A DNA stretch of 4,213 nt from IMG/VR virus record IMGVR_UViG_2529292882_000010, one strand, 5' to 3'. Shown piece after piece: positions 1-3,835 of the stretch. A program made the position numbers and the translations under genes. Positions within the stretch are counted from its first letter, which is position 1; each line of letters opens with the position of its first letter. The stretch comes from a virus (taxonomy: Duplodnaviria; Heunggongvirae; Uroviricota; Caudoviricetes). The notes beneath the pieces were generated by a model. The model searched no databases and had not been told where the DNA came from. It was given only the letters and a program-made list of their open reading frames with translations.

Positions 1-249
1 GGTTGTCACTTAAGCGTATGGTCAACCTGACAACCCGGTGCCACTAATGGGGTAAGGATAACCCCGCCATACTTACCGCCGCGCCATTTCGCGGAGTGCC
101 ACAACCGGAAGCGCACGGTCGAATTAAATTTAACGACACCGTACAGTGAGACGAACTTCGCCGTGCGCTTTCGTGTTGTGTGCCTGCTTTTAACCACGTC
201 AGGCGAGGTGGTATCCTTCTCATCCCGAATAACCAAGAAGGAAATCTAT

Positions 250-450
250 ATGACTAAAGAAGAATTTGTCTCTTATATTTTTGATAAAACGGTTGAAATG
301 TATGCTGCTACTCACGAGTCCTGTAATCCCCTGAATAAACCAGAGGGGAAAGATGATTTCGACAAAATTTACTGCTTCCTGGAGGACCGCTATATCAAAA
401 GGTTAGAGGACGCAGGGATCAAACCCCCAGTGAAGTCACCATTGTCCTGA
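250..450 (+). CDS. hypothetical small protein (66 aa), AT-rich accessory gene
   Basis: Seen in sequence: ATG at 250 in frame with the 163..450 ORF, preceded by AAGGA (238-242) at 7 nt spacing. The 163..249 extension has no RBS and is probably not translated. The region is markedly more AT-rich than its neighbours. No recognisable family. The 3' end overlaps the convergent ORF 419..784 by 32 bp, so one of the two may be mis-called. Confidence 0.45.
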   Translation: MTKEEFVSYIFDKTVEMYAATHESCNPLNKPEGKDDFDKIYCFLEDRYIKRLEDAGIKPPVKSPLS

Positions 451-784
451 GAACTTGCAGGACGTCATGATCGTAACTTCCATCCAAACCGCGACGGCGA
501 ATTGCTTCTCGTATTATCGGAAGCAGCTCGCTGGAAATCTCGGTGCATATTTCACCTGATAATACGCCTGGTTCAAGTGAGAATATTGGTGAACTTATGG
601 TCCTGGTCTCGACAGTTTCAGAGTCAGTGTCAACATTATAAAGCTCAACGAAAGCGGTCTTGATTTTCCGGGCCAGATCTTTTGCTGGCTCGCTTTCAAT
701 GTCTTTCCCGATTTCTCGCAGCACAGAATGCAATGTATGAGCTGCTGTTTTCTGTACATCAGGCGGTAAATCTTTAAATTCCAT
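419..784 (-). CDS. hypothetical protein (121 aa), second gene of a leftward two-gene unit
   Basis: Seen in sequence: ATG (complement of 782-784) lies 11 nt downstream of the stop of ORF 796..1002 on the same strand, suggesting co-transcription. Only a weak G-rich RBS. No recognisable family or motif. Confidence 0.5.
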   Translation of the reverse strand: MEFKDLPPDVQKTAAHTLHSVLREIGKDIESEPAKDLARKIKTAFVELYNVDTDSETVETRTISSPIFSLEPGVLSGEICTEISSELLPIIREAIRRRGLDGSYDHDVLQVLRTMVTSLGV

Positions 785-795
785 CTTTAACCCCG

Positions 796-1002
796 TTAGC
801 CGTTAGATTTTGCCGAACTGGAAAGTGCCTGTTTAAACTCACTGAAGCTGAGAGCTTCTTCGCCTTCGGCAAGGCCTTCGAAGTATTCTTCGTAAGCCTT
901 TTCCATGATTGCGTCGAAATCCATGTTGACCTCATTTCCCCTTAACGCCGGGGTAGCGGAACAAAAACCTGCTGCATAGTTAAAGTTGAACCCTGCCGTC
1001 AT
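796..1002 (-). CDS. small acidic hypothetical protein (68 aa from ATG at 1002; 42 aa if initiated at internal ATG at 924)
   Basis: Seen in sequence: two candidate starts. ATG at 1002 has GAGG about 10 nt upstream. Internal ATG (complement of 922-924) has GAGG at 5 nt spacing, arguably the better RBS. The C-terminal 42 aa are strongly acidic. No arginine-rich N-terminus, so not an N-type antiterminator. Function unknown. Confidence 0.45.
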   Translation of the reverse strand: MTAGFNFNYAAGFCSATPALRGNEVNMDFDAIMEKAYEEYFEGLAEGEEALSFSEFKQALSSSAKSNG

Positions 1003-1105
1003 GTTCTTACGCCTCGGGCTGGCTACTTAACCCCTGACCACTACCTGGTAACTCGAAGTATTGCCCGGCATTCTGTGGGGTGGAGTGGGTTGGTATGAAA
1101 GGAAG

Positions 1106-1154
1106 GATACCCATGGGTATCTAAAAAGTAAATACCCATGGGTAATTTTTTTTT
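1106..1154. promoter_or_regulatory. candidate OL-type operator pair: two copies of palindrome TACCCATGGGTA, then a T9 tract
   Basis: Seen in sequence: perfect 16-bp palindrome GATACCCATGGGTATC at 1106-1121 (core 1108-1119) and a second TACCCATGGGTA core at 1133-1144, centres 25 bp apart, followed by T9 at 1146-1154. Same TACC/GGTA half-sites as the three sites in the divergent region at 1630-1680. Inference: repressor binding sites. The second palindrome plus T-run could also act as a weak intrinsic terminator on the + strand. Confidence 0.55.
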
Positions 1155-1189: not shown

Positions 1190-1609
1190 TTATGATGCGT
1201 TTTGTGCTTTCTTTTTACGGATTTCTTCGTAGATCATATTGTAATACTGTTTTTTCTCTTCAAGAGTTTTTAATAAGTTATCCGCTTCACTTTCTGGCAG
1301 TTCGTCTAAGAGATCTAAAAAAATACGTTGTCGTGGCGTTAGAACCCTTGTTTCATAATTGGAGGCTGTGTTCGTTGATGATGAAACGATACCATCCATC
1401 CATCCTCGGGGTAACCCAAAGGACTCTTCGATAATCTCCACCATATCATCAGCGATCCGTTTTTTTCCCTTTTTCCCCTCTGGGTACAACATTCTTGATA
1501 CATAAGAAGGCTCGCGACCGATTTTTCTGGCTACGTTAACCGCTTTACCATCGCATTTCTCATCACGAATTTTGATGAGTTGCTGTCGTCTAAATTCATA
1601 TTTGTCCAT
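1190..1609 (-). CDS. prophage immunity repressor, short Cro/CI-type HTH protein without S24 peptidase domain (RacR-like by position)
   Basis: Seen in sequence: 139-aa ORF divergent from a cro-like gene across a 100-bp operator-bearing intergenic region. The N-terminal segment KAVNVARKIGREPSYVSRMLY fits a helix-turn-helix, and the C-terminal region is charged and coiled-coil-like. At 139 aa it is too short to carry a LexA/CI-type autocleavage domain. No Shine-Dalgarno upstream of the ATG. Confidence 0.8.
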   Translation of the reverse strand: MDKYEFRRQQLIKIRDEKCDGKAVNVARKIGREPSYVSRMLYPEGKKGKKRIADDMVEIIEESFGLPRGWMDGIVSSSTNTASNYETRVLTPRQRIFLDLLDELPESEADNLLKTLEEKKQYYNMIYEEIRKKKAQNAS

Positions 1610-1709: not shown

Positions 1710-1991
1710 ATGGAAGAATTAAGAATATTTCTCAATTCTCTTTCGTCAGATGAACAGCGTATGTTTGCATGCGAGTGTGGTACCAGCATCGGTTATCTAA
1801 GAAAGGCATTGAGTAAAGGTCAGGTGTTAGGGGCATCGTTATGTGTCCTTATTGAGCGAGCCAGTAATGGTGAAGTTACACGTCAGCAACTAAGGCCTTT
1901 TGATTGGATGAATATTTGGCCCGAGCTGGAAGATACCAAAACGTTAACACAACCACTTTCTAGGAGCTTGATTCATGAAAATCAAGCATGA
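1710..1991 (+). CDS. ydaS: Cro-like HTH protein (YdaS-like)
   Basis: Seen in sequence: 93-aa ORF, ATG at 1710 with AAGGAG (1699-1704) at 5 nt spacing, first gene rightward from the operator region. Contains the HTH-like segment GTSIGYLRKALSKG and the motif VTRQQLRPFDW, which I recall as typical of YdaS/Cro-like prophage proteins. Overlaps the next gene by 17 bp. Symbol assigned by family resemblance and gene order, not by verified identity. Confidence 0.7.
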   Translation: MEELRIFLNSLSSDEQRMFACECGTSIGYLRKALSKGQVLGASLCVLIERASNGEVTRQQLRPFDWMNIWPELEDTKTLTQPLSRSLIHENQA

Positions 1992-2400
1992 ACACATCCG
2001 CATGGCGATGAGTGCCTGGGCGCATCCGGACGGTGAAAAAGTTCCGGCAGCTGAAATAACCCGGGCTTATTTTGAGCTGGGTATGACATTCCCGGAACTG
2101 TATGACGACAGCTATCCGGAAGCCCTAGCTCGCAATACTCAGAAAATTTTCCGCTGGGTAGAGAAAGACACTCCTGATGCGGTTAAAAAAATTCAGGCAC
2201 TGTTACCAGCGATCGAAAAAGCAATGCCACCTCTGCTGGTGGCCCGAATGCGCAGTCACAGTTCAGCCTATTTTCGGGAGCTGGTGGCGACGCGGGAACG
2301 ATTGGTGAGAGACGCTGATGATTTTGTCGCAGTGGCGATCGCTGGTTTCAACCAGATGAATCGTGGTGGTCCGGCGGGAAATGCCGTGGTGATGCACTAA
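1975..2400 (+). CDS. ydaT: YdaT-like protein (proposed CII-like regulator family of Rac-type prophages)
   Basis: Seen in sequence: 141-aa ORF, ATG at 1975 with AGGAG (1962-1966) at 8 nt spacing, overlapping the cro-like gene. The N-terminus MKIKHEHI and the length match my recollection of the YdaT family, and the racR-ydaS-ydaT-like order supports it. From memory only; needs a homology search. Confidence 0.7.
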   Translation: MKIKHEHIRMAMSAWAHPDGEKVPAAEITRAYFELGMTFPELYDDSYPEALARNTQKIFRWVEKDTPDAVKKIQALLPAIEKAMPPLLVARMRSHSSAYFRELVATRERLVRDADDFVAVAIAGFNQMNRGGPAGNAVVMH

Positions 2401-2423: not shown

Positions 2424-3371
2424 ATGAGCAGCAAGCTTCATGGTCTTGTCTGGGAAGGGTGTGCCTTCACCGGCATGATCTTATCCAGGGTGGCAGTAAT
2501 GGCTCGCCTTGCAGATTACAGCAATGACGAAGGTGTGTCATGGCCTGCAGTGGAGACCATTCGTCGTCAGATTGGGGCAAAGAGTGAATCAACGGTTAAA
2601 GCTGCGATAGCGGAACTGGAAAAGAACGGCTGGCTGACGAAGGAGGAACGTAAGGTCGGTGGGCGTAATGAAAGCAATATCTACCGTCTTAATGTGGAAA
2701 AACTCGAAGCAGCAGCAGCGGCGGCGCGTGAGGCATATAAACCGAAAAGAAAAATTAGCCAGGCAAAAAATGACCCGTCAAATATTGCCCCCTCAACGGT
2801 TGACCCCTCAAATTTTGATGGATCAACCATTGATAAAAAACAGCCGGATAGGGGGGCGATGGTTGGCCCCGATCCGTCAGTATTAAAACCTGATCCGTCA
2901 GATAAAAGATCTTTTCGTCCGGAAGCTTCGCAACCGGACTCGCAGACGGCTGAACAGGATTTTTTAACCCGACACCCTGACGCTGTTGTGTTCAGTGCGA
3001 AAAAACGCCAGTGGGGTAGCCAGGAAGATTTAGCGTGTGCGCAGTGGATCTGGGGACGAATCGTGAGTCTTTACGAACAGGCTGCCAGCGATGATGGCGA
3101 GATCACGCGACCGAAAGCCCCCAACTGGACCGCATGGGCTAATGACGTGCGCACAATGCGGATGCTGGATGGCAGAACTCACAGACAAATTTGCGAAATG
3201 TTTGGTCGGGTACAGCGGGATCCATTCTGGGTAAAAAACGTCATGAGTCCGTCAAAGCTTCGTGAAAAATGGGATGAGCTGGTTATTCGTCTGGGGCGTT
3301 CGCCTGTACAGCGTTGCGTGAATCACATTTCTGAACCGGATACCGAAATTCCGCCGGGCTTCAGGGGGTAA
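2424..3371 (+). CDS. phage replication initiation protein (N-terminal winged-helix DNA-binding domain, repeat-bearing linker, conserved Trp-rich C-terminal domain)
   Basis: Seen in sequence: 315-aa ORF, ATG at 2424 with GGAG at 6 nt spacing. The N-terminal region (LADYSNDEGVSWPAVETIRRQIGAKSESTVKAAIAELEKNGWL) matches the pattern of HTH-type replication initiator N-domains. The central linker carries four DPS repeats encoded by direct DNA repeats. The C-terminal region is Trp-rich and resembles the conserved C-terminal domain seen on phage replisome-organiser proteins. Domain names are from memory. Confidence 0.8.
   Translation: MSSKLHGLVWEGCAFTGMILSRVAVMARLADYSNDEGVSWPAVETIRRQIGAKSESTVKAAIAELEKNGWLTKEERKVGGRNESNIYRLNVEKLEAAAAAAREAYKPKRKISQAKNDPSNIAPSTVDPSNFDGSTIDKKQPDRGAMVGPDPSVLKPDPSDKRSFRPEASQPDSQTAEQDFLTRHPDAVVFSAKKRQWGSQEDLACAQWIWGRIVSLYEQAASDDGEITRPKAPNWTAWANDVRTMRMLDGRTHRQICEMFGRVQRDPFWVKNVMSPSKLREKWDELVIRLGRSPVQRCVNHISEPDTEIPPGFRG
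2771..2915 (+). repeat. iteron array inside the initiator gene: candidate phage origin of replication
   Basis: Seen in sequence: four direct repeats of TGAYCCNTCA at 2771-2780, 2801-2810, 2870-2879 (CGATCCGTCA) and 2891-2900, with a degenerate copy near 2818-2828. Spacings are about 30, 70 and 20 bp. Followed by the AT-rich palindrome AAAAGATCTTTT (2904-2915). Four GATC sites fall within about 90 bp (2821, 2871, 2892, 2908). Established parallel: the lambda origin lies inside gene O as iterons plus an AT-rich segment. Confidence 0.6.
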
Positions 3372-3409: not shown

Positions 3410-3835
3410 TTGTGGCAAAAGTATTTACACAAGAAGAGCGGGAAAAAAATTAAGGGGCAGATTGTTGAACTTGTACGTCTGAGCGGTCGCGAGACGTTAC
3501 GGCAACTGGAAGCGAAAACAGGTGCGACAAGATATCTGATGAGTGTTCTCGCCAGAGAGCTGGTTGCCAGTGGCGATGTATACAATTCTGGCTACGGGTT
3601 ATTTCCGTCTGAACAGGCTCGTAAGGACTGGCAAAACGCCCGCAAAAAACTATCGAGGGCAAAGGCGAAGAAACCGGTTGTGGTTGATCCGGACCTTATC
3701 TGGTCATTACCAGACGGAGAAATACGCCGCTACGACAGGAGCCAGAACATAATCTGTCGCGAGTGCCGGAAGAGTGAGGTTATGCAGCGAGTGCTGGCGT
3801 TTTATCAGGGTAATTTTCAGGAGGTGATGGCGTGA
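3410..3835 (+). CDS. hypothetical phage protein (141 aa) with a predicted winged-helix-like N-terminal segment
   Basis: Seen in sequence: the only open frame here. It must start at TTG 3410, because there is no in-frame ATG or GTG before residue 44 and the N-terminal segment (IVELVRLSGRETLRQLEAKTGATRYLMSVLARELV) looks like a real HTH or winged-helix fold. The basic middle and C-terminal CxxC are noted. The stop TGA overlaps the next start as GTGA. Family not recognised. Confidence 0.65.
   Translation: MWQKYLHKKSGKKIKGQIVELVRLSGRETLRQLEAKTGATRYLMSVLARELVASGDVYNSGYGLFPSEQARKDWQNARKKLSRAKAKKPVVVDPDLIWSLPDGEIRRYDRSQNIICRECRKSEVMQRVLAFYQGNFQEVMA
3809..3824 (+). promoter_or_regulatory. copy 2 of repeated RBS-containing junction module GGTAATTTTCAGGAGG
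   Basis: Seen in sequence: identical 16-mer at the 3' end of CDS 3410..3835, where it encodes GNFQE. AGGAGG (3819-3824) lies 7 nt upstream of the GTG start at 3832. Confidence 0.65.

Follow-up and report, generated by a model that had tools for sequence, protein, structure and literature searches.

The closest described relatives of the locus treated here are the early-left regions of the Qin and Rac prophages of Escherichia coli K-12. Qin carries the DicA-repressed dicBF operon (ydfA-ydfB-ydfC-dicF-dicB-ydfD), and transcription of ydfABC(-dicF) from the DicA-repressed promoter was demonstrated experimentally in K-12 (bioRxiv 10.1101/2023.04.14.536235). The corresponding genes of Rac are racR, ydaG-ydaF, sieB, kilS and kilR. 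We analysed a stretch of 4,213 nucleotides (nt) from a virus of the Caudoviricetes (IMG/VR record IMGVR_UViG_2529292882_000010), which is called the window in the following, and in particular its positions 250..1002. The window corresponds to the immunity and early region of a lambdoid prophage of the Qin/Rac type from E. coli and relatives, and 250..1002 is the promoter-proximal part of its repressor-controlled early-left operon. An earlier note on this DNA had described 250..1002 as an unassigned accessory module, consisting of two leftward genes for an acidic mini-protein and a protein of 121 amino acids (aa) and of one convergent gene for a 66-aa protein, here named p66. All three open reading frames (ORFs) are present, and the 3′ ends of p66 and the 121-aa gene overlap by 32 nt (419..450). 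The C-terminal domain (C-domain) of the 121-aa protein and the convergent, 3′-overlapping p66 gene form one mobile two-gene cassette. The cassette and its surroundings comprise the following features:

632..784, minus strand: helical-hairpin N-terminal domain (N-domain), aa 1-51 of the 121-aa protein
584..631, minus strand: disordered linker between N-domain and C-domain
419..583, minus strand: C-domain, aa ~68-121 plus stop codon, two helices; sense half of the cassette
250..450, plus strand: p66, a soluble protein of 66 aa with helical-hairpin fold (phrog_34441); its gene converges on the 121-aa gene and is the antisense half of the cassette
~205..637, no strand assigned: exchangeable cassette (p66 plus C-domain), flanked by conserved N-domain DNA and conserved leader DNA
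190..242, plus strand: promoter-like element and Shine-Dalgarno (SD) sequence of p66, with -35 TTAACC (190..195), a 16-nt spacer, the extended -10 TGgTATCCT (209..217) and SD AAGGA (238..242)

The 121-aa protein (419..784, minus strand) is composed of the helical-hairpin N-domain of ~50 aa, the disordered linker and the C-domain of ~55 aa. AlphaFold2 (AF2) placed a hairpin at residues 8-54 (predicted local distance difference test, pLDDT, ~84), disorder at 54-82 and two helices at 88-118 (pLDDT ~58). As revealed by homologue alignment and HMMER searches, the N-domain occurs elsewhere in phages either alone (56-87 aa) or with unrelated C-termini, and comparison with Enterobacter copies gave an omega of 0.16-0.27, while the C-terminal ~55 residues recur in few other settings (P0042, P0051). 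In the 121-aa protein this common N-terminal helical-hairpin domain is fused with the C-domain. A secretion signal is absent from the protein. An exhaustive HMMER search with the 121-aa protein yielded only 32 clusters at E ≤ 1e-3, all of them hypothetical, and no paper naming WP_001320327 or WP_000159335 was found in the literature.

For p66 an isoelectric point (pI) of 5.0 and a grand average of hydropathy (GRAVY) of -0.67 were calculated, and AF2 predicted a helical hairpin (pLDDT 76). The GC content of the gene is 41.3% compared to 47.7% for the window. The earlier note had regarded p66 as AT-rich and compositionally distinct, a weak argument given that the repressor gene (39.5%) and cro (41.5%) of the same window are equally AT-rich. 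Only two more distant homologues of p66 were gained from a profile search, and the sequence families available are shallow. A by-eye likeness between p66 and the N-domain (loop and second helix) was dismissed, as hhalign showed no relationship. Several independent IMG/VR contigs carry an IS1 element inserted after codon 15 of p66, directly behind MTKEEFVSYIFDKTV (L075 3972..4040, L076 4001..4051, L077 1957..2001), which represents either a recurrent or an inherited knockout.

All intact p66 genes in more than 60 loci from IMG/VR and GTDB are partnered by a convergent C-domain with the 32-nt overlap, and the only exceptions to the pairing are the IS1 insertions in p66. The pair was seen in three fusion contexts, namely N-domain::C-domain, a standalone C-domain, and an unrelated N-terminus fused to the C-domain. 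The second context is a Cedecea prophage, in which cro and cII enclose p66 (74% identical) in antisense orientation to the PR operon, and an uncalled convergent ORF with its own SD (GGAG) and ATG encodes the C-domain only. The third is represented by L159 and L160, in which p66 homologues of 52-55% identity overlap by 56 nt with a convergent 129-aa early-left gene that carries the C-domain (36-43% identity) on an N-terminus unrelated to the N-domain. The orientation is constant in all three contexts: relative to the early operon the C-domain is sense and p66 antisense. The stop codon present in E. coli is missing from the Cedecea C-domain ORF (L006 3568..3897, minus strand), which runs for ~55 further codons antisense through the whole of p66 and would give a protein of 109 aa, also called as P0051.

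The borders of the mobile unit can be read from partial matches. The prophage of Enterobacter kobei (L010) shares window positions 163..204 and 638..784 with different DNA in between, and the Cedecea prophage shares 228..541 only; the edges of the cassette coincide with the conserved flanks. The separate acquisition of p66 proposed earlier is borne out by the comparative evidence, except that p66 moves as a pair with the C-domain and not on its own.

Selection was measured by Nei-Gojobori counts against the 70%-identical Cedecea copy, restricted to the non-overlapping parts of the genes. For p66 the proportions of synonymous (pS) and non-synonymous (pN) differences were 0.75 and 0.15, and for the C-domain 0.89 and 0.23, with both frames free of stops. 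All other frames contain stops, and in these pN was equal to or higher than pS, save in the antisense frame of each gene that shares its third positions. The comparison of L159 with L160 gave pS 0.25/pN 0.036 for p66 and pS 0.21/pN 0.049 for the C-domain. Because pS strongly exceeds pN only in the annotated frames, and these lack stops, both overlapping ORFs are coding; p66 and the C-domain are both genuine genes under purifying selection.

The site occupied by the cassette is hypervariable. A survey of N-domain loci revealed at least nine unrelated C-terminal classes at the same position, and in 9/9 of them a convergent ORF of 72-125 codons starting with ATG terminates at the 3′ end of the sense gene or inside it. 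In mononucleotide shuffles such an ORF appeared with a per-locus frequency of 0.001-0.067. Most of the convergent ORFs are preceded by an SD of the AAGGA or GAGGA type. The layout known from polymorphic effector-immunity loci, i.e. a shared N-terminus, variable C-termini and a class-specific adjacent small ORF, is thus present in all nine classes; no recognisable toxin or enzyme domain was detected in the C-terminal region of any class. The convergent proteins of three classes (L010 4239..4469, L011 4269..4514, L143 3473..3703, minus strand) share the motif L-x-T-L-[ST]-[PA]-[ED] and may constitute one family, although their sense partners share a short SDG..L....L segment and differ thereafter.

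Six unrelated cassette classes and the L159 lineage have a common arrangement in front of the convergent gene, consisting of gCCTGtCTTTTnACCACnTCAGGCnnGGTGGTAnnnT, ~25 nt, AAGGAAAT and ATG, so that the spacing of the motif from SD and ATG is fixed across the classes. Within the -10 motif (TCAGGCnnGGTGGTAnnnT) the TG, A2 and T6 are invariant and positions 3-5 vary, a pattern which is that expected of an extended -10 promoter. The motif is absent from K-12 Qin and Rac, and for this reason we rejected the idea that p66 simply occupies the sieB slot behind the same promoter. The putative -10 of PL (1103..1108) and that of p66 (212..217) have an identical hexamer and an identical local context (GGTATCCTTC), which may be a coincidence or reflect a shared promoter type.

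Sensitive profile and structure-prediction searches, which the earlier note had suggested, identified no functional family or fold for p66 or the 121-aa protein. The three window proteins gave zero matches to Pfam, NCBIfam and PADLOC, and PHROGs assigned them to families of unknown function only. In PADLOC-DB 2.0 no match was obtained for p66, the 121-aa protein or the mini-protein, and the convergent proteins of other classes did not rise above noise (E = 0.017). PDB sequence searches with the single proteins and with an N-domain profile returned noise only, Foldseek searches of the AF2 models, which are simple helical hairpins, against PDB and BFVD gave nothing with E < 1, and the convergent proteins and long C-termini of the other cassette classes had no matches in Pfam or PADLOC. 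A type II toxin-antitoxin module was considered and discarded, since the genes are convergent instead of co-directional and lack Pfam, NCBIfam and PDB matches. Identity of p66 with SieB was likewise rejected: blastp against Rac SieB produced a 9-residue chance match (E = 6.9), and the GRAVY value marks p66 as soluble.

The regulatory surroundings of the cassette and the remaining genes of the window are listed below:

1..191, minus strand: leader that precedes a DicF/KilS-type small RNA (sRNA) in relatives, on the same transcript; 84% identical to the K-12 ydfC-dicF spacer
796..924, minus strand: ydfB, a 42-aa acidic protein (pI 4.05, net charge -7.5) behind a ydfA-type ribosome-binding site (RBS) and ATG
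925..1096, minus strand: conserved 5′ leader of the early-left transcript, common to Rac (upstream of ydaG) and prophages with different repressors
1103..1131, minus strand: putative PL promoter, recognised by eye, with -35 TTTACT (1131..1126), a 17-nt spacer containing OL1, and -10 TATCCT (1108..1103)
1108..1119 and 1133..1144: two OL-type operators, TACCCATGGGTA, from consensus count and palindrome
1190..1609, leftward: repressor, 139 aa (phrog_5736)
1630, 1645 and 1669: three OR-side operators TACC-N4-GGTA, with the same consensus as in OL
1710..1991, rightward: YdaS/Cro-like gene
1975..2400, rightward: YdaT/cII-like gene
2424..3371, rightward: O-like replication gene
among the rightward genes of the window: the DUF977/LygF and DUF4406 genes

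The operators postulated by the earlier note are real: the consensus TACC-N4-GGTA has seven matches in the window against 0.93 expected, at least seven were reached in 0/200 shuffles, and five sites flank the repressor gene, two on its left and three on its right. The leftward pair lies behind the left ones. The early-left, repressor-controlled placement of these genes also holds, as the gene order in the window follows that of the Qin dicBF operon and of the early-left operon of Rac, and transcription of the K-12 operon provides a precedent. In blastn against K-12 the window appears as a mosaic of Qin and Rac segments, and lambdoid mosaicism is visible across its whole length, which agrees with the accessory and mosaic character ascribed to the module. 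The gene order here is PL/OL, conserved leader, ydfB and the 121-aa gene, followed in relatives by the leader preceding DicF-DicB or KilR. The identity of the operon is deduced from this collinearity together with the nucleotide identity to K-12 Qin and Rac, the YdfB match and the operators. That the genes would be expressed on derepression, as had been assumed, is supported by the homology of organisation with the K-12 operon. Neither Rfam families nor tRNAs were found anywhere in the window.

The mini-protein, for which no recognisable family had been claimed, can be assigned by its similarity to YdfB of K-12 (b1572, Qin dicBF operon), a named but uncharacterised protein: 41/42 aa are identical at equal length, 798..924 is 98.4% identical to K-12 ydfB in blastn, and phrog_2061 was matched with E = 1e-26. 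YdfB is the first ORF past the operators and the conserved leader, thus promoter-proximal as in Qin. Its start is most likely the ATG at 924, because an SD (GAGG) is present there and the resulting length equals that of K-12 YdfB. A start at 1002, where the module of the earlier note ends, would give a 68-aa reading of 796..1002; it was rejected as unlikely, as the 26-codon extension is broken by a stop in Rac and the upstream DNA is conserved leader; the in-frame ORF from ATG 1002 within this leader is not conserved. In the literature YdfB was mentioned in gene lists only. A lambda N-type antiterminator was ruled out for both leftward products, as YdfB has a pI of 4.05 and the 121-aa protein a pI of 4.9 and an N-terminus (MEFKDLPPDVQ) without an Arg-rich motif.

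Positions 919..962 match the RBS and start of K-12 ydfA, and the body of ydfA is missing here. RefSeq uses the label DUF1391 (YdfA/YdaF) in relatives of this region, a label we rejected for the window ORFs since they showed no Pfam match and no blastp match to YdfA or YdaF. The label belongs to the ydfA-type gene which fills the slot in most E. coli copies; in L001 and L002 the DUF1391 gene lies in DNA equivalent to 786..918, which the window does not have. As a separate observation, the slot between the leader and the N-domain gene (796..962 of the window, 4471..4794 of L003) holds ydfA in most E. coli copies, ydfB in the window and L019, both in K-12 Qin and neither in Enterobacter. All variants share the RBS and an ATGGAT start, which suggests recombination at the common start region.

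In prophages with unrelated repressors (Rac, L001) the PL leader shows conservation that begins at its predicted transcription start, and 937..1097 is 87.6% identical to the DNA preceding ydaG in Rac. The similarity to Rac and L001 sets in at ~1096, just downstream of the putative PL -10. The 5′ part of the leader is C-rich and G-poor (ACCAACCCACUCCACCCCACAG) with a rut-like look. A structured RNA was rejected for this leader, as no secondary-structure signal was obtained (z = -0.08).

Of 5426 complete E. coli genomes, 398 (~7%) carry the cassette at 95-99% identity, with the Qin prophage of BL21/E. coli B and BL21(DE3) among the carriers. It occurs further in one deposited phage (mEp460_ev081) and in Shigella, Salmonella, E. 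albertii, Enterobacter and Cedecea, and the annotation of every copy reads hypothetical protein. At the left end of the window, 1..191 folds into a long imperfect stem (~95..175, z = -2.7), which is consistent with the RNase III site yielding the 190-nt DicF precursor of K-12. In L001, L002, BL21 and many other loci dicF begins 27 nt left of position 1 and is followed by dicB and ydfD; in L078 dicF begins at the same distance. The closest relative of the window is L019 (97.5% over 1..962), which carries left of the window-equivalent DNA (L019 3279..3751) a Rac-type kilS-like spacer and KilR (81% to Rac KilR) instead of dicF-dicB. For this reason the assumption that dicF and dicB directly adjoin the left edge of the window applies with reservation only. 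A division inhibitor follows beyond the left edge in relatives, and it can be either module; the same cassette is joined to both. The division-inhibition functions (dicF-dicB, or kilR in the closest relative) are located downstream of the three genes, past the left edge of the window, and the exclusion or kil-like role that the earlier note had considered is not supported for any of the three proteins.

At the right side of the window, the DUF977/LygF gene (3413..3835) is frameshifted by a run of seven A residues (3441..3447) in place of the six in L001 and BLR(DE3). The frame splits after VAKVFTQEEREK, and the true start is GTG 3413 behind AGGAGG. The additional A may be due to a mutation, a sequencing error or homopolymer slippage.

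Our preferred interpretation, to which we assign a probability of roughly 35%, is that p66 is a prophage-expressed effector and the early C-domain protein its cognate antagonist, so that the cassette would provide exclusion with self-immunity. In the repressed prophage p66 would be transcribed from its own extended -10 promoter in a moron-like manner. Since no phage promoter reads in the direction of p66, the gene would have to use a promoter of its own. On derepression, or on infection by a phage with the cassette, transcription from PL (PR in Cedecea) would run head-on through p66 and silence it. Because such a strong converging promoter would silence p66 on derepression, its expression would be confined mainly to the repressed prophage. 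The same early transcription would make the C-domain protein one of the very first early products, which would bind and neutralise pre-existing p66. The pair would hence represent an effector of the superinfection-exclusion or abortive-infection type together with an early-expressed self-immunity protein, and the N-domain and the conserved promoter would serve as constant platforms for expression, with alternative cassettes exchanged between them. The proposal draws on the identity of the operon, the coding status of both ORFs, their pairing and its constant orientation, the conserved promoter-like motif, the architecture of the site and the precedents of sieB in Rac and P22. Several observations weigh against it. 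For p66, the C-domain and the N-domain no match was obtained by homology, fold or defence-database searches, and we purely infer their biochemical roles. The promoter-like element of p66 scores 8/12 on the hexamers, falls below the threshold of a generic scan and was missed by it, and the conserved motif could instead serve the leader RNA of the opposite strand. A scan for terminators on the plus strand downstream of 450 found none, the nearest weak candidate being at 864..883. Moreover, p66 is often knocked out by IS1 and hence dispensable to the host, the 32-nt overlap by itself enforces some co-inheritance, and the contig of the full-length relative P0042 (46% identity) is too short to show a p66 neighbour.

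The polarity could also be the reverse, with the C-domain on its N-domain carrier as an early host-takeover or toxic effector and p66 as a constitutive, antitoxin-like immunity protein that guards the lysogen from leaky PL activity. The conserved N-terminus with variable C-terminus and adjoining class-specific small gene would suit this arrangement, as would the strict linkage of the pair; colicins provide a precedent for an immunity gene on the opposite strand with its own promoter (PMC9517006), and leaky dicBF-type operons are known to be toxic (PMC5069750). We consider it unlikely all the same, as a toxin-like domain was not found, the 121-aa protein lacks a secretion signal, and an effector that is blocked at induction by a pre-made inhibitor has no obvious use unless p66 is unstable. 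Furthermore, a Plac-driven K-12 operon without dicF and dicB that retained ydfABC caused no growth inhibition (PMC5069750), though K-12 does not have the cassette. It is also doubtful that the two genes have no functional link at all, p66 being an ordinary moron and the C-domain part of an ordinary early gene which travel together owing to their 3′ overlap and two recombination anchors. The mosaicism throughout the window and the position of the cassette borders at conserved flanks agree with such an origin, and in L015 p66 is 95% but the C-domain 79% identical, which suggests recombination between the two genes. An overlap of 32 nt, however, fails to explain why a whole C-domain ORF of ~165 nt has been kept and selected in three contexts down to 36-52% identity, and the constant sense/antisense orientation to the early operons would be left without explanation.

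If the pair acted at the RNA level, rightward transcription would be an antisense brake on leaky PL transcripts and hence on DicF/DicB or KilR, by convergent-transcription interference and RNase III cleavage of the duplex similar to lambda OOP and cII, and the protein would be secondary. The promoter-like motif is conserved across cassettes with unrelated ORFs, a p66 mRNA would be complementary over its full length to the PL transcript in the part directly preceding the leader processed by RNase III, and the missing terminator after p66 would fit. Yet p66 is clearly under purifying selection as a protein (pN/pS ~0.2) with a conserved SD, and the Cedecea copy is not beside a dicF-type leader, which makes this explanation quite improbable. 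That one or both overlapping ORFs are spurious, for example the C-terminus of the 121-aa protein a read-through of the N-domain into inserted DNA, is hardly credible. In its favour, N-domain proteins of 56-87 aa exist on their own, and read-through may indeed hold for some other classes, in which the C-terminal extension and the convergent ORF have 125-131 nt in common. In the cassette analysed here both frames show pS far above pN without stops while all other frames contain stops, and in Cedecea the C-domain is equipped with an SD and an ATG of its own, while in L159/L160 it is kept on a different N-terminus; an artefact is excluded for the p66/C-domain cassette. Returning to the effector with self-immunity, it is conceivable, if rather unlikely, that many lambdoid prophages of enterobacteria begin their early-left operon with a polymorphic two-gene locus that exchanges cassettes between a fixed N-terminal adaptor, translated from PL, and a fixed opposing promoter. 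Each cassette would encode an early-expressed domain and a cognate partner expressed by the prophage, which would define an undescribed exclusion or abortive-infection family with self-immunity and p66/C-domain as one of at least nine members.

Independently of any defence role, the mini-protein can be re-annotated as YdfB, both overlapping ORFs are genuine genes and the true mobile unit is defined. The cassette lies inside an experimentally studied operon (dicBF) and is carried by the workhorse strain BL21(DE3). An effector with self-immunity, if true, would add a compact class of two small proteins to prophage-encoded phage defence and account for the hypervariability of the site. As a platform for the expression of exchanged cassettes, the conserved N-domain together with the opposing promoter would be well suited.

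Compared to the Qin dicBF operon, the locus agrees in operon position and direction, in ydfB (98%), in the ydfA-type RBS and ATG and in the dicF leader (84%), and related elements, e.g. the Qin prophage of BL21 and phage mEp460, run on into dicF-dicB-ydfD. It differs in the lack of ydfA, in the N-domain::C-domain gene and p66 in place of ydfC, and in a repressor and operators of different specificity; moreover L019 continues into kilR. Rac shares the PL leader (87.6%) and the succession of small proteins, an opposite-strand gene, an sRNA and a division inhibitor, and in the equivalent place its exclusion gene sieB is convergent with ydaF with an overlap of 4 nt. In contrast to p66, which is soluble and not similar, SieB is a hydrophobic protein of 162 aa, and Rac has neither the conserved promoter motif nor a C-domain partner.

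SieB of P22 spares P22 itself (PMC10883804). The logic proposed for the cassette resembles that of P22 sieB in combining a prophage-expressed early-left function with a phage-borne escape by early or antisense expression, and there is no sequence relationship with the window genes. The esc/sas mechanism of P22, reportedly described by Ranade and Poteete in 1993, is said to rely on an escape factor encoded within sieB and not on a separate convergent protein. The operons of pore-forming colicins similarly unite a repressor-controlled, inducible operon with a small effector-specific gene on the opposite strand that has its own promoter (PMC9517006). They are distinguished from the present locus by a colicin domain and an export/lysis gene, and the logic of orientation may be reversed here. 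Lambda OOP is a 77-nt antisense RNA against cII. Like OOP, a p66 transcript would converge over the 3′ end of an early gene, and processing of the RNase III type is plausible; unlike OOP, p66 is a conserved protein-coding gene. The finding falls within the known theme of accessory or moron genes in lambdoid early-left operons and is not a known functional system; new are the strictness of the convergent pairing, the modular fusion of the pair and an architecture for the exchange of cassettes.

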